Below, in pieces: positions 9,493 to 30,814 of a stretch of DNA of 64,000 nt. The stretch's first letter is position 1, and every line of letters starts with the position of its first letter. Location: contig JBGCEL010000004.1 of assembly GCA_045106455.1 (NCBI GenBank), positions 6,434-70,433 of the forward strand, given 5' to 3'. A model generated the notes under the pieces. That model was not told the DNA's origin. It worked only from the letters and a program-made list of their open reading frames with translations, and searched no databases. Origin of the DNA: Gammaproteobacteria bacterium (lineage in GTDB: Bacteria; Pseudomonadota; Gammaproteobacteria; Steroidobacterales; JBCCMA01). The position numbers and the translations under genes are program-made.

Positions 9493-12291
9493 TTAGAGGC
9501 AGCGCAAGTCGAATTTCCCATCTGCCTTGTGCTGATTGTTAAGATACGGTGCACCGGCAAGTGGTCGTGTGCTTTGCAACTTCACAATAAGCGTACCGCT
9601 TGCCGCATCCTGGTAGAACACGCCGCTCTTACTCGAGTCGTTGAACGTACGTAATTCGTCAAGGGTCAGCGCTTGATGCACAGGCTTGATGTTGGATCCC
9701 GGCCAATTGGTTAGCACATAGTCGGAGGGCTTGCTGCAGTTCGGCGCGAAGTGCGCGGCCGACGGTCCATCGATGATCATCGCTGACGTCCAATCGCCTA
9801 GATCGAGGGTTTCGATCCAGATCAGGTTCTTGTCCGGGGTCGTGCGAAAATCAAGATTGGTGATCCGATAGTTGATCGGTTGCGGTGTGTCCGCATACAT
9901 CTGAAACTTGGAAAACAACAACGCCGGGTCGCTGTTGCCAACCGTCGCATTGGTGTCCAGACGCGTCACGTCAAAAACCTGCTTATCGGACGCCGCGCCC
10001 GTATTTTCGCCCATCTGGAACTTGATCGACTGCGTCGGCGTCTGGCAACGCAAGATCGTCGACGCCGGAGTCGCCGGGTCGGCATCGGCGTTATTGGACT
10101 CGCGCACGCAATCCCCGGCAAGTTGGTTAAACGGATCGTCCGGACGTAAATACCCGGCAGCGCCGAACAACGATCCGTCAATGTCGTAGTTGGTCTCGCT
10201 GGCGTGAACGTCTCTCCAATTGAGCCCGAAGTGGCGCGTGTCGTAACTGATTCTGCGATACGGATCGTTCACAAAGTGAATTTGCTCCATCAAGTGATTG
10301 GCAAAATGCGCACGGCCAAATCGCGTAATGGGGGTCGGCGTGATTTCTTTGTTGTTCAGATACATCGGCGCCAGCGGTGCCGCAGGATAATCGAACGTTA
10401 CGTTTCGAAAGTGGTTGGGACCGTCGTACAAACCCCACCCTTTAAACAGGTTGTTTATGTTGCCGCGATCAACGCCCGGTATGCTCAGATCGGCGTGATA
10501 GTAGAGATCCTTATCCGCCGGCGTCAGGCCCTGATAATTCTCGCTGATACCGATGAAGACCGAATCGAAAAACTCCTGATTGCCAGTACCAAACCAACCA
10601 ATCGGCGCTTCTGCGACCACGGCGTTTTTGATGTGCGCCGTTTTTGCCAGACCCCGATAGTAAATGGCCGTTTTGCCCTGCTTGTAGGCATGCATTCCAT
10701 CAAACACCTGCGACGAGCCCGGTGCATAGCCGGTGACGGCTGGCTCACGATCAAACTCGTTGTCGGGATCGACCTGAGCCCCATCGGGCGCGCCGTCCCA
10801 GGTATGTCCGATACGTGTTGAGTAGGCGACATTGTCTTTGTAGTGCAATGTCTGGGAATTAATCGGCCGCACGTTTACCGGGCCCGCCAGACCGGCATAG
10901 TCGCAAAACTCGCCGTAGTTCGCCTGCGGTGCACCCTGGCTGTCGTAGCAATAGAGCTTGCGGATATAGGCATGCCAATAACCGCTACCGGAGTTGACCA
11001 CCACGTTGTCCTGAATCGTGTTGTTGCCGTTGGTGATCCAGAATCCGGCCGGTCCACGCCAGCGGGACAAGCCCACATCAATATCGGTCTGCAGCAGGTT
11101 TTCGCCGACGGCCGGTTCGATAACATCGACCACCAGATTGCCGATCAACGTATTCTCAATTTCGTTGCCGTTCTCAAGGAAGATCGCGTGACCCACCACG
11201 TTGTAGCAAAGGTTGTTACGAATATCGGCTTGATGCGTGTTGTGCAGGGCGACGCAGCGACTGGCGGAATCATGAATCGACGAATTGCGCAGGTACTGTC
11301 CTGTGACCAGTCCGGCATGATGCCAATGCACGGGATACCGACCAAGAATCTTCTGCTGACCCATGCGCTGGAATTCCACCGCGTCAATGCGCGCGGTCGC
11401 ACCGGGCATGATCATCAGGTGACCGCCTTTGGGTCGTGGGGCGTTCCAGTAGCTGTCATTGGCACCGCGAATCGTAATGTTGCGTTCAAGATTGGCCAGA
11501 TAGGCGCGCATATCGGCCACCAGGTCCTGCCCATTTTCGCCTGCAGCCGGATAGACCTTTGGCGCACCGCCGTAGTGGAAATGCTCCAGCGCACTGTCGA
11601 TCGCACACGTCCCCGCAGGGCAGTTATCGTCGAGCGTCAGTAATTCGGTTTGATCGAAATAAGTGCTGGTGGTGGTGAGGATAATCTGATCGCCCTTCTC
11701 CCAGCCGCCCGCACCCGCGGTAAGCAAGGAGGACTGATCGGCCTTGGCGTCCTGATTCAGACGCGAGAAACGCACCTTGGTCAGCTGACCGTGCAAATCC
11801 AGCGTGCCGCCGTTCATGACCACAAACGCACGCTCGCCGTGAGTGGATGGTGCAGGAAACGAGCGGTTATTTCGCAAGGTGAAGGTCACGTTGCCATCGA
11901 ACCGATTGCTGGCAGTGCCGCATTCGAGCTTGGCGTTCGGCCCCGCCACAATAATGCCGTCCGCCTTCACTACCGCATTGACGCCCGCCGCGCAGCGCAG
12001 CGTGCCGTTCACCGTAATCAGCCCGCAGTTGGTGTTGCCGGTAATTTGATACACCACGCCATTATCTGGAATCACGATATCCGGCGGGCCGCCACCCACC
12101 GGTTGCAAGCCGCACAAATTAGTGAGTTGCGCGGACGGCGCCGGCGTCACAATCGTTGGTGCCACCAGCGCCGATGTCACGGGCGGCAATGGCACGGCGG
12201 TCGGTGTCGTGACCGCAGGCGTTACCTGAGCGGCGCTGGCCAGTGAAAGCAACCCGGCGATTAGCCCGGTGGTTAATTGCGTATGTTTCAT
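9493..12291 (-). CDS. secreted G8-domain / right-handed beta-helix protein (CEMIP/TMEM2-like architecture)
   Basis: Signal peptide MKHTQLTTGLIAGLLSLASAAQ. G8-like glycine-rich region (ITVNGTLRCAAG...IIVAGPNAKLECGT). GRYPVHWHHAG motif and PbH1-like repeats (NSSIHDSASRCVALHNTHQADIRNNLCYNVVGHAIFLENGN). AAGGA SD before ATG 12291. Confidence 0.7.
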   Translation of the reverse strand: MKHTQLTTGLIAGLLSLASAAQVTPAVTTPTAVPLPPVTSALVAPTIVTPAPSAQLTNLCGLQPVGGGPPDIVIPDNGVVYQITGNTNCGLITVNGTLRCAAGVNAVVKADGIIVAGPNAKLECGTASNRFDGNVTFTLRNNRSFPAPSTHGERAFVVMNGGTLDLHGQLTKVRFSRLNQDAKADQSSLLTAGAGGWEKGDQIILTTTSTYFDQTELLTLDDNCPAGTCAIDSALEHFHYGGAPKVYPAAGENGQDLVADMRAYLANLERNITIRGANDSYWNAPRPKGGHLMIMPGATARIDAVEFQRMGQQKILGRYPVHWHHAGLVTGQYLRNSSIHDSASRCVALHNTHQADIRNNLCYNVVGHAIFLENGNEIENTLIGNLVVDVIEPAVGENLLQTDIDVGLSRWRGPAGFWITNGNNTIQDNVVVNSGSGYWHAYIRKLYCYDSQGAPQANYGEFCDYAGLAGPVNVRPINSQTLHYKDNVAYSTRIGHTWDGAPDGAQVDPDNEFDREPAVTGYAPGSSQVFDGMHAYKQGKTAIYYRGLAKTAHIKNAVVAEAPIGWFGTGNQEFFDSVFIGISENYQGLTPADKDLYYHADLSIPGVDRGNINNLFKGWGLYDGPNHFRNVTFDYPAAPLAPMYLNNKEITPTPITRFGRAHFANHLMEQIHFVNDPYRRISYDTRHFGLNWRDVHASETNYDIDGSLFGAAGYLRPDDPFNQLAGDCVRESNNADADPATPASTILRCQTPTQSIKFQMGENTGAASDKQVFDVTRLDTNATVGNSDPALLFSKFQMYADTPQPINYRITNLDFRTTPDKNLIWIETLDLGDWTSAMIIDGPSAAHFAPNCSKPSDYVLTNWPGSNIKPVHQALTLDELRTFNDSSKSGVFYQDAASGTLIVKLQSTRPLAGAPYLNNQHKADGKFDLRCL

Positions 12292-12323: not shown

Positions 12324-15300
12324 CTATTGACCGAGGGTCAGGCGCTGCCAGCCGCCCTCACCCGTCGAGCCGTCGGCGTTTTCAATCTGCACAAACAAGA
12401 AATTCCAGCGCAGCGGTGAGAACAATCCATGCGGTGGTTCGTCGAGCGATGCGTTTACCATCGGAAACGTAAATGGCACGTTATCGGCGAGCGCCGCGGC
12501 TACGCCAGGCGCACGCGGGCCACCCAGCATGAGTTGGTAGTAGGCATGGGGCTCTAGCTCCACGGCCGTTTGCCAGATCGGCGCGCCGGTCACAGGGTCC
12601 GATGCATCCGTTGGGTAAAGTGGCAAACTCAGAACGCCGGTCTTGAGTTGATCCAGCGGACCACCCGGGTCCGGTGCCGCGGCCGCATCGTCGTTGTGGT
12701 AGTGCAAATGCAAACGCGCGCCGTGACGAATGTGATTGCCAGCCACTTGAAAACGGCGCGGCGCGTCATCGCGAATGTCGGCGCCTAGACCAAAACCGTT
12801 CGCGTCGGCGCCGTCTTTAATCAGGCCCCACTGCAGCAAACGCACTTGATGCAGAAACACACTTTCCAGGTCTTCGTTGTCCCGTACCCGCCAGACGCCC
12901 TCAATGTTGGTCACGTTTTCATAAAACGAATTGGCGACCATGGGCAGCAAGGCGATATTGTCTGGCGCGGGGCCGTCCACGGCTGCTGGCGCGACGCCAT
13001 CGGGTGCGGCCACCCGGCGCTCGCTGCCAAGCGGTACGGATTGAAACACCAATCGATCACCGACTTGCAGTGCATCAAGAAGCTCCGTCCGTTTCAAAGA
13101 CGACGCCGCCGCGTTTAGCGGCTGATACCGCTGCGTCACCGGATCAAACCAGAAGCCCCGTGCGCTGCCCGCAAGCGAGGCCTGCACCGCCACCCCGGCA
13201 TTGGCTGAACCTGCCTGTTGCTCCATACACATCAGCGTGGCGCCAACATTGTCCGCGCACGCGGCCGCGCAGGCCGTGGTGCCAACGGGCAGCGGCTCGA
13301 TGGCATCCACCTGACTCATGGTCACCGTCACCGCACACCCGATCATCGGCGCGGCACCCCAATCCACCTCGTGCACAAATTGATTGAGTGCCTGCAGGTT
13401 GACGCAGTGATCGTCGCCCGTCGGGCACAGCGATGAAGAAAAAAACGTGCGATTAAATTCGTTGATCGACGCCACCGTATTGACCAGTAACGGCGCGCCC
13501 GTCGCACGGGTTCCAAGATGGAACAAACCCTCGAAGCCGGTATACGGCGCCTGATCCGGATGCTCGAGACCGTCGATACTGCGCCGCGCTTCTTTCTGAA
13601 ACAGCCCGCGAATGGCCGCCGTTTCGGTGGGCTGGTTGGTCAAATCCGTAATCAAATTGTTGCTGCCCTCCGGCAGTGAATGGCACATCGCGCAGGAACG
13701 GGCCGACGCGGTGGTCGGAAACACGTGATACACCTTCAGACCACGCTGGCCCAGCGTGCTGGTATCCATATTCACGTCGGTCGTCGGATCAAAAAAACCG
13801 CTGGGCTGGCGCGCGCGAAGCTGCTTCGGATTCGGCGGATAGGAAATGGAATTGATGAACGCCTCGAAGCGCGCCATCTCCACCTCATCGAGCATGGCGC
13901 CGCCGAGCAAGGAACGGAACGAGCCGTTGAACGCTTTGAAATCTTCACGATCTGCGCGCCAGTGATACGGCGCATTGGTCACCCAGCCCGCATCTGCTGG
14001 CTCTACTTCGAAATTGAGCAACCCCTGAAGCGACTGAGTGACCATGAGGTCTTTGTCCGCCGGCAACTTCATCGGCGGCAACGCATCCACCAGCGCAGGC
14101 GGCACTTCTTCGTTTTGTGCTTCGGGTGTGCCCAGGTCCCACGCCAAACCATCGGTGCGACCCCACATGTGACAGCTCGCGCAGGACACAAACCCGTTGG
14201 CGGATAAACGCGCGTCATAGAGAAACGGCTGGCCCAGTCGGATGTAGTCGGGTCGTGGATCGTGGGACAGACTTAAACTTGCGTTGTCGACTAGCAATTC
14301 ACTGATCGGATCAAGCACGACAATCGAGTTATCCAGGTGGTTGAGCACGTACACCCGCGGCCCCGGATCATTTAGCTGCTGCGGATTGCCATACTTAATG
14401 GCAAGCGCGTTAGGGCCCGCCATGGGATTGGCATTGAACGTTGGGATATCGACCACATTCAGCGGCCACGCGCCCGCATCCAGCAACGTGGCGGCGGGTT
14501 GCAAGACGCCCACCCGGTCGTTGCTAAACGCTGTGAAAAACACTTTGGTCGCCGACTCATCGGCGTACACCGCGAGACTGGTCAACGTGGACAGCGCCCG
14601 ACTGCGCGGCACTGGCGAGGGCAGCGGGCCCGATGGCTGCCACAGATTAACGTCGCGCGTTTGCACGATGCTATCCGTCGCACACGGCGCAGCAACACGG
14701 TGAATTTGACTACGTACAAATCCGGTAGGCGCATCTCGCACCGCGTGCTCATCCGTCAGTTGACGATTTAGTGCGGTGCCGCTGGCTACGAAGAGCGAGC
14801 CATCAGGCGCGAACGCCATATTAAAACCGGTGGTACCAATTCCGCCACGCCCCACGGCCATGTCAAACGGTGTGGCCGCATCGGCGCAGTACAAATCCAG
14901 ATCAAACCCAAACGCATCGTGCTCATCGCTGCCGCCCTTTGCTGCAAGCACCAGCAGCTTGTCGTCACGCACCAAAACCGTCCGCGGTTCTTTGAGTGCA
15001 CGCGCGATCGTTTCATCCACGTTGCCATCCAGATCATCATCGATTGGCGCGTTCACGATGGCCGCCCGCAGCGCCGTATCCGCCTGGACGGGTGCAAGCG
15101 TCAGCGCATCACGCCATCCCACACCGTCGAGCGCCATGTGCGTGACAAACAAGCGCTCACGCACCTCACCATTTACCATTTGCGTGTGAAACGCGATATC
15201 CAGTGGCTCGTCCCCGACCGGCGTCGTCTCGATCAGTCCGACGCGCAACGACGCGGGGCCCTTTGGCGCTGACAGTCCAATCACCGACAGCGAGTCGCCC

Positions 15301-15620
15301 AGAAAGTTAGCCACGTACAGACGCGACAGTCGCGCGTTATAGCGCACCGACACTGGCTCAAGGCCCACGCGCACACGCGCCAATCGGCGATCGTCCGCGG
15401 ATTCATTCGTATCGTAAATTTCGAGCGTACCGTTGCGCGTATTCAATGCGGCGAGATAGTCATGTCCGCCCAAGCGCACCACCTCCAGCGCGTGCACTTG
15501 CGGGCTCTCGACGTTGAAATAGTCGCTGCGGCCTTGCGCCGTAGCGCTCACATGCCCGGCGCACAAGGCCATCACAACCCACACCCGGCTATGCCAGCTG
15601 CACAATTTTCGTGTCGACAT
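12324..15620 (-). CDS. exported beta-propeller protein fused to a dihaem cytochrome c peroxidase (CCP/MauG)-like domain
   Basis: Start re-picked at ATG 15620 (GGAGGGGAAGGTG directly upstream), giving signal MSTRKLCSWHSRVWVVMALCAGHVSATAQG. Two haem-binding CxxCH motifs: FLYDARLSANGFVSCASCHMWGRTDGLAWDLG (classic CCP context) and SCAMCHSLPEG. The N-terminal half has repeat character (YVANFLGDSLSVI, YVLNHLDNSIVVLD). It lies 32 nt upstream of the G8 gene, so an operon is likely. Confidence 0.7.
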   Translation of the reverse strand: MSTRKLCSWHSRVWVVMALCAGHVSATAQGRSDYFNVESPQVHALEVVRLGGHDYLAALNTRNGTLEIYDTNESADDRRLARVRVGLEPVSVRYNARLSRLYVANFLGDSLSVIGLSAPKGPASLRVGLIETTPVGDEPLDIAFHTQMVNGEVRERLFVTHMALDGVGWRDALTLAPVQADTALRAAIVNAPIDDDLDGNVDETIARALKEPRTVLVRDDKLLVLAAKGGSDEHDAFGFDLDLYCADAATPFDMAVGRGGIGTTGFNMAFAPDGSLFVASGTALNRQLTDEHAVRDAPTGFVRSQIHRVAAPCATDSIVQTRDVNLWQPSGPLPSPVPRSRALSTLTSLAVYADESATKVFFTAFSNDRVGVLQPAATLLDAGAWPLNVVDIPTFNANPMAGPNALAIKYGNPQQLNDPGPRVYVLNHLDNSIVVLDPISELLVDNASLSLSHDPRPDYIRLGQPFLYDARLSANGFVSCASCHMWGRTDGLAWDLGTPEAQNEEVPPALVDALPPMKLPADKDLMVTQSLQGLLNFEVEPADAGWVTNAPYHWRADREDFKAFNGSFRSLLGGAMLDEVEMARFEAFINSISYPPNPKQLRARQPSGFFDPTTDVNMDTSTLGQRGLKVYHVFPTTASARSCAMCHSLPEGSNNLITDLTNQPTETAAIRGLFQKEARRSIDGLEHPDQAPYTGFEGLFHLGTRATGAPLLVNTVASINEFNRTFFSSSLCPTGDDHCVNLQALNQFVHEVDWGAAPMIGCAVTVTMSQVDAIEPLPVGTTACAAACADNVGATLMCMEQQAGSANAGVAVQASLAGSARGFWFDPVTQRYQPLNAAASSLKRTELLDALQVGDRLVFQSVPLGSERRVAAPDGVAPAAVDGPAPDNIALLPMVANSFYENVTNIEGVWRVRDNEDLESVFLHQVRLLQWGLIKDGADANGFGLGADIRDDAPRRFQVAGNHIRHGARLHLHYHNDDAAAAPDPGGPLDQLKTGVLSLPLYPTDASDPVTGAPIWQTAVELEPHAYYQLMLGGPRAPGVAAALADNVPFTFPMVNASLDEPPHGLFSPLRWNFLFVQIENADGSTGEGGWQRLTLGQ

Positions 15621-15722
15621 CACCTTCCCCTCCAGACGTTGCCATATGGGGTTGGAGTCAATGCCCGATTGCTTTGCCCCCCCGGGCAACGGTAAGGTCG
15701 AAAAAAAGTCATCGGCAGCGCA

Positions 15723-16307
15723 ATGGGCGTATCGCTCCACGAAGAACTCCGCAAGATTGCTGGCGGCGACCGCAAGGCCACCGCATGGCTTTACGACACG
15801 TTCGCACCGCGTTTGTATCGTCGACTGCAGGCGCGTTACGGCCCGCTGGGACTCGACGCCGAAGAGCTATTGCACGATGCCTACGTGTTTTATCTGCAGC
15901 ACGATGGTCGGGTATTGCTGGCACTCGCCGAGCGTTGCAAGGACGAGACACTCGATGAATTTAGAGTGCATACCGCACTGTGGGATTTGGCCTGCGGCGT
16001 CGCCAGCAACAAGCGTCGCTCACAGCGTCGGTCAAATCTCGTGCCGCTCAATGACAGTGCGCTAGCCAGCGACGACGGTACCACTCGTCAAACGCTGACC
16101 CGTGACCTGCTCGAAAGACTGGACCTGTGCCTGAGCCACAAAAACCCGCGCGTCTATTTGTACTTCAAACTGCGCTTCGTCGATGGATTGGCACCCGACG
16201 ACATCAGCAAAACCACCGGCTGGTCGAAGAAGGCGACATACAAACTGCGTCAATCGTTCAATGCGGCGCTAAGCGACTGTGCCGATCGACTGGAAATCAC
16301 GCCGTGA
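15723..16307 (+). CDS. ECF-type (sigma-70 family) RNA polymerase sigma factor
   Basis: About 190 aa. Region-2-like DAEELLHDAYVFYLQ. Region-4 HTH LYFKLRFVDGLAPDDISKTTGWSKKATYKLRQSF. Confidence 0.75.
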   Translation: MGVSLHEELRKIAGGDRKATAWLYDTFAPRLYRRLQARYGPLGLDAEELLHDAYVFYLQHDGRVLLALAERCKDETLDEFRVHTALWDLACGVASNKRRSQRRSNLVPLNDSALASDDGTTRQTLTRDLLERLDLCLSHKNPRVYLYFKLRFVDGLAPDDISKTTGWSKKATYKLRQSFNAALSDCADRLEITP

Positions 16308-19027
16308 GATGGTCACTCATCGCATCGCTGTCTGTGACTTGCATTCTCACGGCGTGCGCGCCCGATGAGCCCACCACGGATGATCTGACCAGATCCGTGA
16401 CGATTTCCGTGCGCGGCCACCAGGAAGTGCGTCTGCAAACCGGGCAGCCAACACTGCCGTGGTTTATCGGCGCGCCATTCGTTGCCGGCGTGTGTCTATC
16501 CCCGCCGCTTGATGCTGATACAACGCAATGGCGGCTGGCCATAGATCTGGACCAGCACGACCCCAATCCGACGTTTAAAATGCCTACGGCTCGACGCGGC
16601 GAAATGTTGTGTGTTGATACGCAGCACACCGCCACGGACAACGGCCTTCATGCTTTGTGCGCCACCGTCGTCGATGATTTCGATGGCGCAATACGAACGC
16701 TGCCATGCGAGCCGGTGCATGTGAGCACGCACGATAGCGCGTACGCCGAAGCGAGTGATGCGCTCCAGCGTCTGCTACGCGAAACCCAACGCACTGGAAT
16801 TGCCGCTGAATTTCTAACTCTCGCGGCACAAGCACACGCCCAGCAACGCCCGGCAACGGCACTACGTGCGCTATTGATTGCAGCGCATTTCGAGCGCCGG
16901 GACGGGGGGCACGCTGCCGCAAACCAGCTAGACACCACGCCGTCGTGGCTTGACGACAATGCCGCGCACGCCATCGCCGCCCAGTTCTTTTACGAGCGCT
17001 CGATGATTGCTTTGCTTCAGGGCAATTTGCGTGCCGCCTGGCAAGATGCCGTTACGGCCGAAAGACGGTTTCGCGCCGTGGCGCATCCTAAAACGATTGT
17101 CGCGGCCACGCGGCGAGCACAAGTGCTGCAAGTGGCCGGCGCCGCCGATGAGGCACGCCGTGACCTCACGCGTGCCATTGCTCAGTGTGGAGGTAGCGAA
17201 TGCGAGCTGGCGCTGTTGCGCAATGCCCGCAGCACGCTTGCGTGGTGGCTCATGCGGGACGGTGCGACGCCGGCGGATCTGGAGCAAGCGCGCACACTTT
17301 TGACCAACGCCCTCGACGCAACGAAAGGCCTTGAACGCGCCAATGCGCTACTCAATCAGGCCTGGATGGATGCCCGCTCTGCACACGTTTCCAGCGCGTT
17401 AGACGAGGCCGGCCACTTGCTGCGTGATGCTAAGGGTCAACGCGGCGAGCAGCTACGTCACTGGCATACATTCTTGCTGGCCCGCAACGCGAGCCACGAC
17501 GGCGACCCGGTCCGCGCATTGCAGTTGCTCGATCAAATTCGAGACACCACGCCGGAACTTGCGACACGCACCCACAGTATGCGCGGTCACCTGTTACGTG
17601 CTTCAGGCCGACGCCAAGAGGCGGCACAGGAATTCTCACGGGCCGTCGCCCTGCACAGACGGGGCCTTAACCATGATATGCGGATACCGCTGTCGCCCGG
17701 ACAACGGGCTTCGGACCATTACGCACTGGCACTGAATGCGATTGATCTCGACGCGCCGGAGGCCGCCTGGACCGCACTGTCTTTGCTCGGCGACACACCC
17801 CGCGATTCAAGCTGCGACCGTGATCGGAACCACTCGACCGAGCAACGTCTCGATACGCTGTACCAAGAACTCAACACTCTGCAAGGATCGGTTTCCACAC
17901 AGCGTGCACGCCAGCGCGCACAAATACGCACACAACTTATGCTCGAGCAACGGGCGCTGCTGCGCAGCCACACTCTCTGCCATTCTGATCGAGCGCTGGC
18001 AGCTGAACCCGATCTGCGCGCGTTTTTCTACGACAATACGATTGTCGTACTGGCCCGCGATGATGCCGGCCGGATCGCGGTCGCCAAACGCACCCCCATA
18101 AAACACGCCTCTATGCACAGCACTATTGACTGGATGCGGCACGCGCAAAACGACGCGTCCATCGACGATATACAATGGCGGATGGCCACACGCGATTTGG
18201 CACTGGCGCTCTTGCCGCCGCCGGCCCGCTTTGAAGCGCCGTTAACACGCATGGCATTGCACGGCGCACTGCAAAATATACCGGTGGGGGCATTACCTTA
18301 TGGTGACGGCTGGCTCGCCGATCTCACCACGCTCGTCCAAACGCCGGCCGGCCAAGGGCAGCCCTTCCAACGCGATCTGCAGCGCACCCGTGGCGCAGTG
18401 GTGATCGACCCCAGTGAAAACTTCGCCAGCGCACAGGACAGCCACGACTTTTTTAGCCGTGAGTTGCCCTCGGCAAGCATCATTCGCGGTAGCACAGCAA
18501 ACGTTGCGCGCGTTCTGCGCGCCGCACGCGAAGCACGCTGGCTGCACATCGACGCCCACGGTGCCGCGGATCAACAGTTCGCTGATTTGTACGCGCTGCA
18601 CATGGCCGACGGCCTGTTGTTTTCCGCTGCCCTGACGCGACAGGCCGGCGGTCTTGAGTTTGCCAATCTCAGTAGCTGTCGCAGTGCTGCGTTTCCATTA
18701 ACCGCCGATGGTGGCCAGTGGGGGCTTGCCGGTGCGCTGGCGCAGGCCGGTGTTCCCTGGGTCATTGCGGCACGCCATGATCTGGACGACGAGGCAGCCG
18801 CCCGCTTTAACCAGAATTTCTACGCACACTACAACGTGAAGCCCTCGGTTCCCGCCGCCTATCGCCACGCCCACGCTGCACTGCGAGAGGCCTTCCCCGC
18901 ACGTATCTGGTCAGCATTGATACTTGTAGGGGGGCAAACTGACGCCACCCGGACTCCTCCCCTAATAGCGCAGCCTGTATCACCCGCTCGCCGCGCGCCC
19001 GCAACCACGGCACAACGCGATGAATGA
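16304..19027 (+). CDS. helical-repeat (TPR-like) + CHAT (caspase-like protease) domain lipoprotein
   Basis: GTG 16304 overlaps the sigma-gene stop (GTGA) and gives MRWSLIASLSVTCILTAC, a lipobox. A long alanine-rich helical-repeat region follows. The C-terminal CHAT domain keeps the His (WLHIDAHGA) and Cys (FANLSSCRSAAF) dyad. The track start 16127 is an over-extension into the sigma gene. Confidence 0.75.
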   Translation: MRWSLIASLSVTCILTACAPDEPTTDDLTRSVTISVRGHQEVRLQTGQPTLPWFIGAPFVAGVCLSPPLDADTTQWRLAIDLDQHDPNPTFKMPTARRGEMLCVDTQHTATDNGLHALCATVVDDFDGAIRTLPCEPVHVSTHDSAYAEASDALQRLLRETQRTGIAAEFLTLAAQAHAQQRPATALRALLIAAHFERRDGGHAAANQLDTTPSWLDDNAAHAIAAQFFYERSMIALLQGNLRAAWQDAVTAERRFRAVAHPKTIVAATRRAQVLQVAGAADEARRDLTRAIAQCGGSECELALLRNARSTLAWWLMRDGATPADLEQARTLLTNALDATKGLERANALLNQAWMDARSAHVSSALDEAGHLLRDAKGQRGEQLRHWHTFLLARNASHDGDPVRALQLLDQIRDTTPELATRTHSMRGHLLRASGRRQEAAQEFSRAVALHRRGLNHDMRIPLSPGQRASDHYALALNAIDLDAPEAAWTALSLLGDTPRDSSCDRDRNHSTEQRLDTLYQELNTLQGSVSTQRARQRAQIRTQLMLEQRALLRSHTLCHSDRALAAEPDLRAFFYDNTIVVLARDDAGRIAVAKRTPIKHASMHSTIDWMRHAQNDASIDDIQWRMATRDLALALLPPPARFEAPLTRMALHGALQNIPVGALPYGDGWLADLTTLVQTPAGQGQPFQRDLQRTRGAVVIDPSENFASAQDSHDFFSRELPSASIIRGSTANVARVLRAAREARWLHIDAHGAADQQFADLYALHMADGLLFSAALTRQAGGLEFANLSSCRSAAFPLTADGGQWGLAGALAQAGVPWVIAARHDLDDEAAARFNQNFYAHYNVKPSVPAAYRHAHAALREAFPARIWSALILVGGQTDATRTPPLIAQPVSPARRAPATTAQRDE

Positions 19028-19760
19028 CGATAAAAACCTCGATGAACTGGCTCACGAGATGGCACGTGGCCTGCAACCTGCGAACACGCCATCGCAGCTC
19101 ACCGACGCTGAGCTCCAGGCCTATCTTGATGGTCCCGGTGGTGCCGATATCGAAACTCGATTGGCGCGGGACGATGCCGCTCGCCAACGTCTTGCAACGC
19201 TCGCCGGTGTCGCGCCAGTCGTGGCGCCGACCGCCGTGCGAGAACGCATTCTGGGCCCGGAACCAGCACCGGTTCAACCTAATTGGCTCACCCGCATCGC
19301 CGCCGTCGTGGCGATGCTTGCCGTTGGGCTGGCGGTCTGGATGAGCGGTCCGACCGGTCCGACGGCTGAGCAGCGCCGCGCCTTCGCCGCACTCGACTAC
19401 TCGACCTCATTGCAAGGGCTGGCGCGAGTACGCGGCGTCAATGATGCGCGACCTGCCAGCGCCTATCCCGACAGTTTGGTCAGCATTGAGATTACACCCA
19501 CGGTGAGCACTTCTCTGCCGCTGCACTACGCGCTGTTCGCAGGCCGTCCGCCGCACCAACAACGACTGCAGCCCGTAAGCATACAGTCCAACCGCGGCGC
19601 CGTGACGCTGAAATTTCATCCCGAGCAGTACGCCGCGTTGCAACCCGGTCCGCTGCGCTTGCAAGTGGTTGTAAGTTTGCACGAGCTGCCAACAGACGCC
19701 TCACTTTTTGATAAGCGCGATAAAATTTTCGATTACGACCTGCTGATTCTGGCTCGCTAA
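19020..19760 (+). CDS. single-pass membrane protein with anti-sigma-factor-like N-terminus
   Basis: LTDAELQAYLDGPGGADIETRLARDDAARQRLATL resembles the anti-sigma (ZAS/RskA-type) N-domain but lacks the H/C zinc ligands. One TM helix (WLTRIAAVVAMLAVGLAVWM). Periplasmic C-domain of about 130 aa. ATGAATGA overlap with the CHAT gene stop. Confidence 0.5.
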   Translation: MNDDKNLDELAHEMARGLQPANTPSQLTDAELQAYLDGPGGADIETRLARDDAARQRLATLAGVAPVVAPTAVRERILGPEPAPVQPNWLTRIAAVVAMLAVGLAVWMSGPTGPTAEQRRAFAALDYSTSLQGLARVRGVNDARPASAYPDSLVSIEITPTVSTSLPLHYALFAGRPPHQQRLQPVSIQSNRGAVTLKFHPEQYAALQPGPLRLQVVVSLHELPTDASLFDKRDKIFDYDLLILAR

Positions 19761-19772
19761 AATCAGCACACG

Positions 19773-21413
19773 ATGGCGCACGACGCCACCACGGAGACCA
19801 CGACCATGACTCACTTCACACCAAAACTAACCCCTCTACGCGGCGCCGCGGCCGCCCTGTGCGTCACGTTGTGCGCCGGTGCTCAAGGAGACGTCACGTG
19901 GCAGCTCTACGATCGACAGTGCGCTCTCGACAACGTCGAGGAGCAATTCGCATGCGGTAACTACGGTCGGTTTTATCTAAACGGTGCGAGCCCGACAGAA
20001 TCTTGCGACGTGATTGCCGAGGGCAGCGACAATTCACTCCCGTATTTTGCGGTCCGAAACGTAGAACCGTTCCCCTCCGTTCCGGTTGTGCCAGCGGGAC
20101 AGCGTGCCGCCACGGCCTCAGCGACCGCCTTAACACAACATCCATTGCAACTTATCGACCAGACACCGTTTCCTAGCGCCATACCGTGGCTGGCCATGAT
20201 CGATTTCGCTGGCGCTCACGGCAACAGCGTGCATTGGCTGGCGCAGGCGGTCGCGGGTAGTGGCATCGCAAGCCGCACCATTTTGTTGGATGATCCGGAT
20301 CAAAATCCCGACGGCAACGTGACCGATCTCGACGTCTTGCGTTCTTTGTGTCAGGTGGCCAATGTGGCACAGCGCGCTCCGCATTTGCGACCCGTCGTCA
20401 ATATGAGCTTCGGTCGCCCCATTGCCGATACAGACCCTGTGAACACCATGACGTGCAGTGGGCCGCAGTTCAGCTGTCAAATTCTGCGCGTGACGCAACA
20501 CCTTGCGCAGCGCGATGCGCTGCTCGTCGCAGCCGGTGGCAAGCAACGCGAAACCCTGTTCCCTGCCGCACTCGAAACGGTCATCGCCGCCGGGCAGCTG
20601 GATCCTTCGGAGTTTGTGCTCACCAAGAACGCGCAGGCAACGTGGGAGATGCCCGCAGGCACCAATGCGTTGATGCCCGGGAACGGCTTGTGTATTCGCG
20701 GCGGCTGGTCTGCACCTTCCGGCGCGTCGTACGCCAGCGCTTTCCTTGCCGGCTGGCTGGCATTTGCCGCAAGCGACAACCCCGGTTTCGATCTGCATAC
20801 CGGTGTGCTGCAGCCGATTCATTCTCCCGCGCGTAATTGCCACGTGCTCGGCACGGACAGTGGCGGCGAACTGAGCGCGTGCAACGCCTACGTCGAGGAG
20901 GTGTTTCAGGGCATCGGCGGTCAGTATCAATCCGGCTGCTGGAGCAACCCGATTGATTTGTCAGCGCACGTTGCGCTCGGCACGCCGACCGTCGAGCAGC
21001 CCGAAGCCGTGGGCGCCGTCACCTGGAACGCACAAGTGCGACCGGCACCCGAGGGCGACCCCTGTGTCCCCTGCACGGGCTCAAATTTCGCGCGCAACGC
21101 ACCGGACACCGGCGACCTGACAATCAATCTGGCCAGCACGCTGCCCATGCGCCCCAATCTTGCAATTGAAAGCGTGCATGTCCGGGTGGACGCGCTGTTT
21201 TACCCACTGCTCGCCAGCGCCGATGTACTAAGCGCACTGCATGCCGGCCAGGTAGATGAGCTGGTTTTAAAAAACGCCGCGCCTCTGGTGACACAGGCAG
21301 GCTCGGCATCCCTGTTTTTTCAACTGCGTGATACCAGCGCGGCCAGTTGCTCGGATTTGGTTGATGGCGAAGCGGGGTGCGCCTGGATGGCGACGCACAT
21401 TCATACGTTCTAG
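19773..21413 (+). CDS. secreted subtilase (S8)-like protein, divergent
   Basis: Signal-like region (AAAALCVTLCAGAQG). S8-like blocks: LAMIDFAGAHGNSVHWLAQAVAG, VVNMSFG, LVAAGGKQ, SGASYASAFLAGWLA (Ser block). The Asp-His spacing is atypically short, so activity is uncertain. Confidence 0.5.
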   Translation: MAHDATTETTTMTHFTPKLTPLRGAAAALCVTLCAGAQGDVTWQLYDRQCALDNVEEQFACGNYGRFYLNGASPTESCDVIAEGSDNSLPYFAVRNVEPFPSVPVVPAGQRAATASATALTQHPLQLIDQTPFPSAIPWLAMIDFAGAHGNSVHWLAQAVAGSGIASRTILLDDPDQNPDGNVTDLDVLRSLCQVANVAQRAPHLRPVVNMSFGRPIADTDPVNTMTCSGPQFSCQILRVTQHLAQRDALLVAAGGKQRETLFPAALETVIAAGQLDPSEFVLTKNAQATWEMPAGTNALMPGNGLCIRGGWSAPSGASYASAFLAGWLAFAASDNPGFDLHTGVLQPIHSPARNCHVLGTDSGGELSACNAYVEEVFQGIGGQYQSGCWSNPIDLSAHVALGTPTVEQPEAVGAVTWNAQVRPAPEGDPCVPCTGSNFARNAPDTGDLTINLASTLPMRPNLAIESVHVRVDALFYPLLASADVLSALHAGQVDELVLKNAAPLVTQAGSASLFFQLRDTSAASCSDLVDGEAGCAWMATHIHTF

Positions 21414-21482
21414 GGCGACAGCGTCAGCGTCGCACCCACGATCACGCACGTCCTGTAACCGTGCTTCTGGCACAATGCATGC

Positions 21483-22460
21483 ATGAACGCACACCTCGAG
21501 CAGCTCGTCTTGACGGCCACTGGCGCCTCGACGTTAGTCAACTGTGAAACGATTCAGAGGCTATGGAGTGGCTACGGCCAGATCTTGCGTTGCACGCTGC
21601 GCGAAGCGAACCCGGGCAATCATGTAAGCGTGATCGTCAAACATGTTCGTTGGCCCACTTCAAATAGTCACCCGCGTGGCTGGAATACCGATCATTCGCA
21701 TACGCGCAAGGTTCGCTCCTATCAAGTAGAGAGCGTCTGGTACGAACGCTGGGCAGAGCAATGCGATGAATCATGCCGCGTACCAAGATGTCTGGCGCTC
21801 GAAGCACAAGGCGACGAGACTTTCATCGTGCTCGAAGATCTGGACGCTGCCGGTTTCGATCAGCGGCGCGACCACGCCACCGAGGCTGATGTGCAGGCCG
21901 GCCTGCACTGGCTCGCGAATTTTCACGCCACGTATATGCACGAAGTACCGACAGGGCTGTGGCAAACCGGCACCTACTGGCATCTGGGCACACGTCCCGA
22001 TGAACTCGACAAGCTCGAGGACCTGAAGCTCAAAACCGCAGCACCGCTGATCGACGCCAAACTGTCCGCCAGCCCGTTTCAGACCTTCGTCCACGGTGAC
22101 GCCAAACTGGCCAATTTTTGCTTCGCCGACGACAGCCGCGTCGCCGCCGTCGATTTTCAATACGTCGGTGGCGGCTGTGGCATGAAAGACGTTGCCTACT
22201 TCATTAGCAGCTGCCTGAGTGAAGTACAGTGCGAACGCGGCGAAGAGGCGCTACTGAACACCTACTTTGGCGCTCTGGAACACGCCCTGGCCGTGCGACG
22301 CTCGAGCGTCCCTTTTAAGGATCTCGAAGCGGACTGGCGTGCACTCTATCCGATCGCCTGGACCGATTTTTTTCGCTTCCTGCGCGGCTGGAGCCCCGGA
22401 CACTGGAAAATTCATCGATACAGCCAACGACTTGCGAGCGAAGTATTGGCGCAATTATGA
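21483..22460 (+). CDS. protein-kinase-like phosphotransferase (APH/choline-kinase/EcKL-like)
   Basis: Catalytic-loop motif [13 protein letters not shown] followed by [20 protein letters not shown]. Size and layout are typical of APH-fold small-molecule kinases. Confidence 0.7.
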
Positions 22461-25227: not shown

Positions 25228-25469
25228 GAAAAAAAAATCCTGAGGCCTGAGCACGGCAGTCTTAACGTAATTCGGCCGAAGTATAACGCAACCCACGCGG
25301 TAACAATTTTCCATATTGTGCAAATTCTTGTGGCAAAGCCCGCGGCCATTGACGCCAATTTGACCTGTGTCCCAATTCCCCCACGACATTATTCCCATCC
25401 GGCCACGCACGCTTTAGATTGATGGAGATCCACCGCTAACGGCCTAACGACGTTCAAACCGACCCCTCT

Positions 25470-27227
25470 ATGACGAAAGACTGTGCAACTCGGTGGCTCT
25501 CTTTGCTTTGCAGTATGATCCCCGGCGTTCGCACCGCGTATTATGTCAATGCGGCAACACCTACTTGTGAGCAGCACATTGTCGCCAGCTACCCAGATGG
25601 CGCCACACCAAACGACGCTATTGAAGCGCTTGTACGCGACACACTGGTTGCGCAAGAGGAAATTGCTCGGCCCGTGCCGGGCGTGGCTATCCCGTCCAAA
25701 AGCTGGGCACTGGCACGACTCGTCGCGGTCGCCAACAGCGTGGGCGTCGTTGCACTTGAATTCGATGACACGACACAAGAGCAGCTAGCCGCTATCGGCC
25801 AACTCGTCGCGTGGGCTGGCCAATGGGCCACACTCGCACAGCCCGCTGCCATGGCGGTCAACCGCCACGAGCCAGACCTGAACCTGGCAAACGTGCTGCT
25901 GGAAGCCGCCACACTTGATCAAGCGCTCGCTAAGGCCTGTCGACACTTGTCCGGGAAGTTTGGCGGCACTCGTGTTGCCATCGGGCTGCACGCGGCGGAC
26001 GCCGTTTCTCTTGCCGCCGTCTCGGATCGCGCAGCATTCGACCGCCGCACGCAAAGCGCCGACCTGTATACGGTCGCGATGAATGAAGCGTTTGATCAAA
26101 GCCGTATTGTCGCCCACCCGCACACGGACACTACCGTTGCCGCCGTTAGCGTCGGCCACCGCAAGCTCGCCGATGCCGAGCGCTCCTGCGCGTGCAGCGT
26201 GCCACTTGGCACGAGCGGCGATCCGGCAGGCATCGTCACGCTGCTGCGCGCTGAATCCAAACCATTCACCGATGACGACATGGCGATGTTGCAACCGTAC
26301 GCCGCTTTGCTCGGGCACATCATCCACGTTCGCCGTCGGGCTGAGCAGGGACCTTGGCGTCGCCTGCGTCAGTCCATGCAGAGTTGGCGCAAACATTGGC
26401 TCATGGCCAATGCCCCGCGTCGCCGGATGGCGGTGGTCGGTGCCGCGGCCGTCATTGCGTTTCTGGCTCTGGGCTCTGCCCCGTATCAGGTGGGCGCACC
26501 GGCGGTTCTGGCCGGCACTTCGGAGCGCACCCTCGCCGCTCCGGTGGACGGTTACTTAAGCGAGGTGCACGTGCGCCCCGGCGCACGCGTTGCGAGTGGT
26601 CAAATTTTAGCCACGCTCGACCCGGCGCCACTGGAACGCCAACGCCGACAGTTGCAGGGCCAGCGTAGCCAACTCAACGGCGAGTACAACGTCGCGCTGG
26701 GCAAATTAGACGGTGCCGCGGCCCGCATTTTGCAGTCTCAACTCGCCCAAACTCATGTCCAGATCGAACATCTGGATGCGCAGCTCTCAAGACTCAATAT
26801 CACGGCGCCATTCGACGGCCTGGTTCTTGATGGCGATCTGATGCACGCCGCGGGCGGCCCCGTCGCACTCGGCGACACCCTTTTCCGACTGACCCCGAAC
26901 GGGGGCTATCTGGTGCGCTTGCACGTCTCGGCGAGCGACGTCGAAGCGATTGGCATTGGCGCACGCGGCCGCCTAAAACTAGCGGCACTGCCCAATGCGC
27001 AGCTGGACATTGAAGTGGTGCGAATTAACGGCATCGCACAAACCGTTGACGGCCGCAGCGTGCTGGAGATGGAAGCCACCGTACACGGCAATCAGGACTA
27101 TCTGCGCCCCGGCATGAAAGGCGTTGCACGGCTCGATGCGGGGCACGCCCGAGTTCTGTGGATCTGGACGCATTCAATTTGGCAACGCATGAAGCTCTGG
27201 TTGTGGCGCTTCAGCCCGGTGGCATAA
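25470..27227 (+). CDS. GAF-domain / TM / HlyD-type periplasmic adaptor fusion protein
   Basis: The cytoplasmic N-half ends in a typical GAF C-terminus (SVPLGTSGDPAGIVTLLRAESKPFTDDDMAMLQPYAALLGHII). One TM helix (MAVVGAAAVIAFLALGSAPY). Adaptor motifs: PVDGYLSEVHVRPGARVASGQILATLD, a coiled-coil hairpin, and ITAPFDGLVLDGDL. Confidence 0.7.
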   Translation: MTKDCATRWLSLLCSMIPGVRTAYYVNAATPTCEQHIVASYPDGATPNDAIEALVRDTLVAQEEIARPVPGVAIPSKSWALARLVAVANSVGVVALEFDDTTQEQLAAIGQLVAWAGQWATLAQPAAMAVNRHEPDLNLANVLLEAATLDQALAKACRHLSGKFGGTRVAIGLHAADAVSLAAVSDRAAFDRRTQSADLYTVAMNEAFDQSRIVAHPHTDTTVAAVSVGHRKLADAERSCACSVPLGTSGDPAGIVTLLRAESKPFTDDDMAMLQPYAALLGHIIHVRRRAEQGPWRRLRQSMQSWRKHWLMANAPRRRMAVVGAAAVIAFLALGSAPYQVGAPAVLAGTSERTLAAPVDGYLSEVHVRPGARVASGQILATLDPAPLERQRRQLQGQRSQLNGEYNVALGKLDGAAARILQSQLAQTHVQIEHLDAQLSRLNITAPFDGLVLDGDLMHAAGGPVALGDTLFRLTPNGGYLVRLHVSASDVEAIGIGARGRLKLAALPNAQLDIEVVRINGIAQTVDGRSVLEMEATVHGNQDYLRPGMKGVARLDAGHARVLWIWTHSIWQRMKLWLWRFSPVA

Positions 27228-29351: not shown

Positions 29352-29400
29352 GACCTTCACACACATAACGCTCCGCCAGAACACTCTGAGAAACACCACG

Positions 29401-30807: not shown

Positions 30808-30814
30808 CGTACTC

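Follow-up and report, generated by a model that had tools for sequence, protein, structure and literature searches.

A conserved four-gene cassette that sets a TPR-CHAT lipoprotein between an ECF-type sigma factor and its predicted anti-sigma factor

Introduction

Why should the gene for a caspase-like protease lie wedged between the gene for a sigma factor and the gene for what is probably its anti-sigma factor? The question is raised by four co-directional genes in a 64,000-nucleotide (nt) stretch of DNA from a gammaproteobacterial assembly (GCA_045106455.1, contig JBGCEL010000004.1, positions 6,434 to 70,433 of the forward strand; hereafter the window, whose coordinates are used throughout). 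The first of the four, at 15723-16307 (+), encodes a divergent extracytoplasmic function (ECF)-type sigma factor of 194 residues with regions 2 and 4 only; it is followed by genes for a 907-residue TPR-CHAT lipoprotein (16304-19027, +, with a GTG start at 16304), for a predicted single-pass anti-sigma factor of 246 residues (19020-19760, +) and for a secreted protein of subtilisin fold (19773-21413, +), referred to below as the S8-like protein or subtilase. A reading of this DNA from its letters alone (the sequence-only reading) had placed the four open reading frames at just these positions and had proposed that the CHAT lipoprotein, the S8-like protein or both might make the first (site-1) cut in the anti-sigma protein, and so release the sigma factor.

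The answer at which we arrive is that the cassette is a self-contained ECF sigma signalling unit, a split version of the DdvA/DdvS switch of Myxococcus, a reading to which we would give a probability of roughly 55%. DdvA is a periplasmic TPR-CHAT protein fused to an anti-sigma domain, and its CHAT domain has been proposed as a site-1 protease that acts before RseP (PMC11506125). Who cleaves whom in the cassette, whether the anti-sigma protein binds the sigma factor and which promoters the latter reads are matters that we infer, and the competing accounts are weighed below where the evidence bears on them.

A conserved and self-contained arrangement

The genes of the cassette are tightly packed. 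The sigma stop codon, TGA, and the CHAT start codon, GTG, overlap as GTGA, and the stop of the CHAT gene (19027) and the anti-sigma ATG (19020) as ATGAATGA. The 12-nt gap that had been noted before the fourth gene is correct for the open frame, which begins at 19773; the likelier start is the ATG at 19806, which has a GGAGA Shine-Dalgarno sequence 8 nt upstream, matches the NCBI call (535 residues) and widens the gap to 45 nt.

The sequence-only reading had leaned on the order of these genes, and the order is kept elsewhere. Comparison of a sigma alignment with one genome per GTDB species gave 20 loci, mostly in Acidobacteriota (Holophagales and Thermoanaerobaculia), together with another gammaproteobacterial metagenome-assembled genome (MAG) and a deltaproteobacterial MAG. 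Seventeen of these, with 10 metagenome loci, make up the approximately 27 loci with enough DNA for the purpose, and the order sigma, CHAT, anti-sigma, S8-like is found in every one; the three left out are one orphan sigma gene and two loci cut by contig ends. Close relatives of the window's CHAT protein are few; each of the four that can be placed on contigs is encoded in a locus with this gene order, which is found again in six more loci to which homologues of the S8-like protein led. The 4-nt start/stop overlaps at the sigma/CHAT and CHAT/anti-sigma junctions recur widely, and several MAGs have two diverged copies of the cassette.

What surrounds the cassette is not shared. BLAST clustering of the flanks of the 20 loci found no gene common to at least three of them, and a Pfam census of 79 neighbour genes brought out no functional theme. 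The cassette is therefore the functional unit that it had been taken for, since its order recurs while its flanks are unrelated, and the notion of a conserved adjacent regulon or a defence island was dropped on the same grounds. No homologue of the sigma factor was found in phage and plasmid collections. The four genes are thus a widely conserved, self-contained chromosomal signalling cassette, and the recurrence of their arrangement is far beyond chance. That the system is independent of clustered regularly interspaced short palindromic repeats (CRISPR) had also been suggested, and it is borne out: the window, in which not every open reading frame was screened for cas genes, yielded neither a CRISPR-like array nor a tandem repeat and no match to Rfam CRISPR-DR, and none of the four proteins has a PADLOC match.

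The orphan sigma gene (L016, 9968-15377, in a Multivoradales MAG) deserves separate mention. It belongs to the same sigma family, has no CHAT, anti-sigma or S8-like genes beside it, and is followed by type IV pilus genes (PilX_N and PilY1/VWA) behind a weaker copy (score 15) of the promoter-like motif that is described below.

The sigma factor

The first gene product is an ECF sigma factor of a very divergent lineage, and the earlier assignment is upheld by several profile comparisons that agree. Residues 24-172 of the window protein align with positions 7-150 of the 165 of TIGR02937 (1.8e-6), with a score of 27.7 bits against a curated cutoff of 42.9 bits; Pfam (Sigma70_r2/r4_2) gives no match at E <= 0.1, so that hidden Markov model (HMM) searches recover the expected family through sub-threshold NCBIfam ECF matches and not through Pfam. 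Among 22 of its orthologues TIGR02937 matches 19, TIGR02989 15 and Sigma70_r4_2 13, all below the cutoffs, and Sigma70_r2 matches six. The sigma profile also matches ECF sigma factors of solved structure in the PDB, weakly, and hhalign aligns it end to end, through both domains, with a canonical ECF sigma factor (167 columns, E 2.9e-4). With 41-54% identity among orthologues, the sigma factor is the most conserved of the four proteins.

Three of its cysteines (Cys91, Cys136 and Cys186) are invariant in 22/22 orthologues, one of them inside the WDLACG motif that resembles region 2.4. This is unusual for an ECF sigma factor and might mean sensitivity to metals or redox state. The partner anti-sigma protein has no zinc ligands.

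The anti-sigma factor

Pfam gives no match for the window's third gene product, for which a cytoplasmic domain (residues ~25-85), a transmembrane (TM) helix (~90-110) and a periplasmic domain of ~135 residues can be drawn. Eighteen aligned orthologues share the N-terminal motif LLWELS ... L.AYR.G.L...E...VE..LA.S..AR.RL..LAGV, a single TM helix with Arg/Trp ahead of it, and an invariant Arg ~28 residues beyond the membrane (Arg138 in the window protein). A profile made from these 18 sequences, compared with 5.8e9 proteins, matches (E 7e-6) an outgroup protein (P0009) that exceeds the Pfam cutoffs for both zf-HC2 (26.9 bits) and RseA_N (26.3 bits) and whose gene lies directly 3' of a canonical ECF sigma gene. 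In hhalign the family and P0009 are related at 96.2% (E 2e-9) over the helices of the anti-sigma domain, a Pro-rich segment and the TM helix. The HxxxCxxC zinc motif is absent from all 18 aligned members, and P0009 likewise has no Cys in the corresponding region. Because of the match to P0009, with its Pfam scores and its sigma neighbour, what had been described as anti-sigma-like is now a predicted zinc-less class-I anti-sigma factor with a homologous anti-sigma domain. A word-indexed homologue search with the anti-sigma profile added just three matches, its candidates being dominated by low-complexity sequence.

The gene for P0009 stands in an operon of its own (L032, 2378-5733) that consists of a canonical ECF sigma gene, the zf-HC2/RseA_N anti-sigma gene and a gene for a 581-residue Peptidase_S8, and has no CHAT gene. 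This is the same logic minus CHAT, and hints that the pairing of anti-sigma factor and subtilase is older than the insertion of CHAT.

The TPR-CHAT lipoprotein

The CHAT protein consists of a signal peptide with its lipobox Cys18, a Cys-rich beta domain (~33-141), helical/TPR repeats (~145-555) and the CHAT domain (~570-876). Pfam recognizes the CHAT domain at 2e-19 (70.6 bits; cutoff 24), and a profile of the family matches consensus TPR proteins at 4e-12 over the repeat region. The motifs that had been singled out by eye, HIDAHGA and NLSSCRSA for the catalytic dyad and ILTAC for the lipobox, are all present in the translation, and the claim that the protein is exported with its dyad intact is sustained by its relatives. 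The dyad is His752/Cys792; each residue is kept in 104 of 105 full-length relatives and is invariant in 19/19 cassette loci. The lipobox Cys is present in 87 of the 105; in the remainder a hydrophobic anchor forms the N-terminus. Conservation among the relatives extends to several Cys pairs, fitting an oxidising compartment and hence a periplasmic location. The family is sharply bounded: when all 1.84 billion representatives are searched exhaustively with its profile, 162 proteins are found at E<1e-30 against 27,590 at 1e-3.

An AlphaFold2 model of the protein (mean predicted local distance difference test score, pLDDT, 62.8) shows the signal peptide, the beta domain, ~400 residues of helical repeats (145-555) and the CHAT domain. 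When this model is compared with the PDB by Foldseek, the periplasmic part of DdvA ranks first (8rw5/8rot, E 1e-12), Csx29 next and separases after that; PDB sequence searches with the CHAT profiles return TPR proteins only, and neither DdvA nor Csx29.

Two proteins in the representative library (P0021 and P0076) are in-frame fusions of a sigma factor (~200 residues), a signal peptide with lipobox and a full TPR-CHAT protein. If they are real, such fusions would tether the sigma factor to the membrane through the CHAT protein; alternatively, they could have arisen from frameshift errors where the two genes overlap by 4 nt.

A promoter-like motif before the anti-sigma gene

A further element of the cassette came to light when the region upstream of the gene that diverges from it in the window was compared with that upstream of a homologue at another locus (L028): the two share GGGGCAA-N14-GACTCC. 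A weight matrix was trained on 15 sites, with sites called at a score of at least 17. The bipartite motif GGGGGCAA-N14-GACTCC has two exact matches in the window, one at 18930-18959 (+; matrix score 26.8) and the other at 15652-15681 (-; 22.3). The first lies 60 nt upstream of the anti-sigma ATG, where the CHAT gene ends in a poorly conserved 3' tail. Of 24 loci, 22 have a site scoring at least 17 before the anti-sigma gene, seven of them outside the training set, and where the S8-like gene is separated from the anti-sigma gene (L019 and L021) the motif stands directly before the S8-like gene. At a score of at least 16, about 33 sites are found against 2-6 in shuffled sequence. Since the motif is intergenic in several loci it is not a coding constraint. 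No site of at least 17 precedes the sigma or CHAT start in any of the 24 loci, and sigma autoregulation through the motif, which had been considered, was rejected, the best score before a sigma gene being 8.5.

In its fixed spacing, its orientation and its distance from start codons the motif has the character of a sigma-factor promoter, and the cassette's own sigma factor is its candidate reader. The site at 18930-18959 would then be a sigma-dependent internal promoter of the anti-sigma and S8-like genes, which are the only universal motif-preceded targets. The sigma and CHAT genes would have a promoter of another kind. A strict scan of 15400-21700 for sigma-70 promoters and terminators found nothing exceeding chance; a weak housekeeping-type candidate, TTGCTT-N18-TAAGGT (15669-15698, +), back to back with the divergent motif and ~25 nt before the sigma ATG, can be read from the sequence with low confidence, and it fails the strict consensus scan.

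Two observations on promoters in other cassettes may be added. Five of 23 loci (L008, at ~780-795, L009, L011, L013 and L014, all Acidobacteriota) have a TAnnnT hexamer (TAGGAT, TAAGAT, TATACT) 6-9 nt before the sigma ATG, compared with 4% of background windows; its position suggests that in these bacteria sigma and CHAT are transcribed without a leader from a promoter of housekeeping type. Paralogous cassettes in the same Acidobacteriota MAGs (L008/L009 versus L020/L023) carry distinct variants of the motif upstream of the anti-sigma gene, GGAAGCAA-N14-GACTCC as against GAGGGCAA-N15-GACTAC, and the latter goes with LW(S/G)AACG in sigma region 2.4 instead of LWDLACG. The difference could serve as promoter insulation between paralogues.

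The subtilisin-like protein: output or site-1 protease?

The fourth protein is a divergent subtilase (Pfam Peptidase_S8, 2.4e-5; 24.2 bits against a cutoff of 21.8). Its AlphaFold2 model (pLDDT 75, predicted template modelling score 0.81) runs from a signal peptide through a prodomain-like beta segment at the N-terminus and a disordered linker to a catalytic domain and a C-terminal beta-sandwich; subtilisins head its Foldseek matches, among which are also PCSK9 and the eukaryotic site-1 protease S1P. Neither Asp144 nor His149 varies, and the two are unusually close, only 5 residues apart; Ser319 is kept in 14 of 15 members and is Thr in one. The Asn of the oxyanion hole (AAGN), which most other members keep, is Lys in the window protein, and its nearest relatives without this Asn read AGGK, AAGK, SAGM or SAGV (that is, K, M or V) in its place. 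The many invariant Cys residues of the family suggest export.

This protein provides the main rival to a CHAT-driven switch. The subtilase might itself be the site-1 protease that cuts the anti-sigma factor, as S1P does in the processing of SREBP, with CHAT as sensor, scaffold or zymogen activator and subtilase expression as positive feedback. It is conserved in the cassette as strictly as CHAT is, it retains Asp, His and Ser, its modelled N-terminal segment and disordered linker are typical of zymogens, the eukaryotic site-1 protease is among its structural matches, and the outgroup operon of P0009 combines sigma factor, anti-sigma factor and Peptidase_S8 with no CHAT at all. Set against these points is the placement of its gene behind the motif together with the anti-sigma gene, so that its presence before activation is not obvious. 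The clade of the window protein has also lost the oxyanion Asn, one member has exchanged Ser for Thr, the DdvA precedent gives the role to CHAT, and hhalign, in a comparison of the S8-like family profile with the S8 protein encoded beside P0009, detected no relation. We regard a subtilase of this kind as an unlikely site-1 enzyme. The corresponding part of the sequence-only reading, that the S8-like protein might make the site-1 cut, gives way: its position makes it look more like an output or feedback component than a resting site-1 protease. As the only universal motif-preceded target that is not regulatory, the subtilase is either a conserved output or a feedback element.

Candidate targets beside the cassette

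The second exact copy of the motif in the window (15652-15681, -) lies 31 nt before the ATG (15620) of an operon that diverges from the cassette and that had been proposed as its regulon. The first gene of that operon (12324-15620, -) encodes an exported MauG/CCP-like protein of ~1098 residues (Pfam CCP_MauG, 1.7e-7) with a signal peptide, a di-haem region that has two CXXCH motifs, and beta-propeller repeats. The second (9493-12291, -), 32 nt further downstream and probably co-transcribed, encodes a 932-residue G8/CEMIP beta-helix protein (Pfam CEMIP_beta-hel 3.5e-50, G8 2.6e-12), also with a signal peptide. The motif would be a sigma-dependent promoter of this operon. In L028 a 42%-identical homologue of the first protein (1128 residues aligned) is encoded immediately 3' of the S8-like gene, again with a copy of the motif before it. 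The proposal holds to this extent, and the first gene is a candidate member of a local regulon; the operon as such is not conserved across the family, and no counterpart of the 9493-12291 product was found beside other cassettes.

Different genes occupy the equivalent place elsewhere. Divergent genes in L026 and L029 have the motif in the same position as in the window, and copies precede a 1041-residue HZS_alpha protein in L026 and Ig-like TIG proteins in L029; genes for M23 peptidases follow the motif next to or inside two cassettes (L003, 3948-5190, score 23.2; L007, 8267-9903, score 24.0). Large exported haem/propeller proteins with weak hydrazine-synthase-like matches stand behind the motif in three cassettes, namely the window protein (12324-15620, -) and that of L028 (3963-7292), both with CCP_MauG and YVTN repeats, and that of L026 (2598-5723, -; HZS_alpha). 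Homology of the ~1098-residue window protein to the HZS_alpha protein of L026 was considered, and found no support from BLAST. Elsewhere in the window (25330-36550) three consecutive genes for HlyD-like membrane-fusion proteins, the first with a GAF domain, are followed by one for a 1954-residue Big_9/cadherin-like protein; a degenerate, sub-threshold motif with 2 mismatches (25330-25356) lies upstream of the first of them.

The exported nature of these neighbours is an argument for a second alternative, that CHAT and subtilase are not regulators of the sigma factor at all and instead form an extracytoplasmic proteolytic effector pair, for remodelling the envelope or degrading foreign or secreted proteins, with generic envelope proteases or a conformational signal to inactivate the anti-sigma factor. 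The motif-preceded neighbours (M23 peptidase, haem/propeller, Ig-like, PilX/PilY1) are all exported, the subtilase is the single universal output of the sigma factor, and cleavage of the anti-sigma factor by CHAT is itself a prediction. An effector would, however, hardly be expected where the CHAT gene is found, wedged with conserved overlaps between sigma and anti-sigma genes in every locus and not behind the motif; the nearest fold to its product is the sensor domain of an anti-sigma factor, and the representative library contains the two in-frame sigma-CHAT fusions. We judge this account improbable, more so than the subtilase as site-1 enzyme. Least likely by some way is an anti-phage or conflict system in the manner of DdvA/DdvS or Craspase, in which the caspase-like protease would sense infection and turn on defence genes: DdvA/DdvS does control a CBASS-CRISPR (cyclic oligonucleotide-based antiphage signalling and CRISPR) island (PMC11506125), protease-gated sigma factors are known in CRISPR-linked systems and genes for a TIR protein and an AAA_15/21 protein lie near one cassette (L001), but PADLOC recognizes none of the four proteins, the flanks of the 20 loci show no defence enrichment and no cas families among enriched Pfam matches, the window offers no CRISPR array or cas context (not every open reading frame having been screened for cas), the sigma factor is absent from phage and plasmid collections, and the motif-preceded genes encode envelope and exported proteins instead of defence effectors.

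How the switch might work

Taking the cassette as a split DdvA/DdvS-like unit, one may picture its operation as follows. Sigma factor and TPR-CHAT protein would be made, with translational coupling, from a promoter without the cassette motif, and so would be in place before the switch is activated. The CHAT protein would be exported and anchored in the membrane, most members through a lipid and the others through an N-terminal helix, while the zinc-less cytoplasmic domain of the anti-sigma factor would hold the sigma factor at the membrane and its small periplasmic domain would be the point at which the signal acts. The TPR and beta sensor region would control the CHAT domain, the trigger being an extracytoplasmic protein signal. 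CHAT would then clip the juxtamembrane or periplasmic region of the anti-sigma factor, a site-1 cut made in trans (DdvA has been proposed to cut itself), after which a site-2 protease and cytoplasmic proteases would free the sigma factor to transcribe GGGGGCAA-N14-GACTCC promoters. Its action on the anti-sigma gene would amount to replenishment, that is, negative feedback; the secreted subtilase would be the one conserved output; and variable neighbour genes for exported proteins would be driven as well, in the window the operon for the di-haem/propeller and G8 beta-helix proteins.

That CHAT triggers removal of the anti-sigma factor is the most likely arrangement, and its regulatory role is plausible; it is assigned the part of signal-responsive site-1 protease because of the analogous model for DdvA and because it is the protease expressed before activation. 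Several observations pull the other way. The sigma factor falls below every curated threshold, including all NCBIfam cutoffs. The evidence for the anti-sigma domain comes from one strong outgroup match (P0009); Pfam, applied to the 18 orthologues, gives one marginal zf-HC2 match, and PDB sequence searches with the anti-sigma profiles give nothing meaningful. The CHAT model is a moderate one (pLDDT 62.8, from a 5-sequence alignment) and its template modelling scores to DdvA are low (0.39). The window's subtilase, lacking the oxyanion Asn, may be a weak enzyme. In two loci (L015 and L028) no good site precedes the anti-sigma gene. The CGT usual in the -10 element of ECF promoters is missing from the motif, whose reader may be some factor other than the sigma factor of the cassette. 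The precedent is itself not beyond doubt, as mutants of the DdvA dyad gave no phenotype and no cleavage of DdvA was seen (PMC11506125). Interactions and cleavage in the cassette are, finally, all predicted from sequence.

A bolder generalization can be advanced only tentatively, with clearly less than even confidence. It is that the family represents a widespread, CRISPR-independent extracytoplasmic switch from caspase to sigma factor, in which a membrane-anchored periplasmic TPR-CHAT protease senses a protein signal, cleaves a separate anti-sigma factor in trans and frees an ECF sigma factor of a new lineage with its own promoter code, the whole constituting a portable sense-and-secrete proteolytic unit that captures varied exported cargo genes.

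Comparison with known systems

Full-text searches of the literature found no description of the split cassette, and the motif and its placement are a new finding of this analysis. The sequence-only reading had turned to the type III-E CRISPR proteins Csx29 and Csx30 for its closest precedent; DdvA/DdvS of Myxococcus is closer (PMC11506125). There, too, an ECF sigma gene is directly followed by one for an extracytoplasmic TPR-CHAT protein with a His/Cys dyad, an anti-sigma domain and a TM helix are part of the system, and it is DdvA that the window's CHAT protein matches best in structure. The differences are as instructive. DdvA is one polypeptide (a CHCC anti-sigma domain, TM helix and TPR-CHAT), whereas in the cassette the anti-sigma domain and TM helix reside in a separate protein of 246 residues; the cassette's TPR-CHAT protein is a lipoprotein and has, at its N-terminus, an additional Cys-rich beta domain; its anti-sigma domain has no CHCC zinc site, lacking Cys/His ligands altogether; a fourth, subtilisin-like gene is obligatory; and there is no detectable similarity to DdvA at the level of sequence. 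While ddvS-ddvA is autoregulated, the cassette's sigma gene is not behind its own motif. DdvS-dependent promoters have the form GTAA-n16-CGT (PMC6061681); the cassette's GGGGGCAA-N14-GACTCC differs from this in sequence but resembles it in layout, with a -35 xxAA and a ~16-nt spacer. DdvS has a CBASS/CRISPR regulon and the cassette has none, and the cassette extends over 162 clusters at 50% identity, in contrast with a few Myxococcota and one Comamonas for DdvA.

An account of group ECF54 (PMC8999054), summarizing Huang et al. 2015 and Casas-Pastor et al. 2021, describes actinobacterial sigma factors whose neighbours have CHAT, subtilase and carboxypeptidase domains and for which proteolytic regulation was proposed from the neighbourhood alone. 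As described there, ECF54 is actinobacterial and has no anti-sigma factor, whereas the cassette has a protein with an anti-sigma domain and Gram-negative hosts; on this comparison, which is one of descriptions only, ECF54 may be a related cassette with an unrecognised anti-sigma factor.

Type III-E Craspase shares with the cassette a TPR-CHAT protease linked to an ECF-type sigma factor and to the protein that restrains it, and its Csx29 is the second-best structural match of the window protein. Craspase (Cas7-11, Csx29, Csx30-Csx31 and RpoE) is cytoplasmic and RNA-guided, and target RNA activates it through Cas7-11. The protease of the cassette is, in contrast, exported, and its sigma inhibitor is a predicted class-I anti-sigma factor of the membrane and not Csx30/31; of the further marks of Craspase (Cas7-11, an array, Csx30/Csx31), the window has no array or Rfam CRISPR repeat, PADLOC matches none of the four proteins, and no cas families are among the enriched Pfam matches in the flanks of the 20 loci.

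The canonical systems in which anti-sigma factors and their like are removed by regulated intramembrane proteolysis are RseA-DegS-RseP, RsiV and RsiW-PrsW, with S1P/S2P as the eukaryotic case. Their likeness to the cassette lies in the single-pass, N-in anti-sigma protein with its cytoplasmic anti-sigma domain and in the dedicated extracytoplasmic proteases encoded alongside, and eukaryotic S1P is a precedent for a subtilase as site-1 protease. What sets the cassette apart is that its candidate site-1 enzymes, a caspase-like CHAT lipoprotein and a divergent subtilase, are both encoded inside the operon, and that the sigma-type motif is found on the anti-sigma half of that operon only. The latter suggests an unusual wiring for an ECF system, with the anti-sigma factor, and not the sigma factor, under sigma control.

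The comparison with DdvA is also where the cassette may prove most useful. The signal of DdvA and its proposed self-cleavage are unproven, partly since protease and substrate share one polypeptide; in the cassette, protease, substrate and sigma factor are separate proteins, and cleavage in trans is for that reason cleanly testable in vitro. The motif provides a ready reporter and a means to read the regulon from sequence alone, and the family, with ~160 clusters at 50% identity in Acidobacteriota, Gammaproteobacteria and a deltaproteobacterial MAG, is much broader than that of DdvA. If the split-switch reading is right, the control of transcription by caspase-like proteases extends from CRISPR-linked cytoplasmic systems to ordinary envelope signalling.

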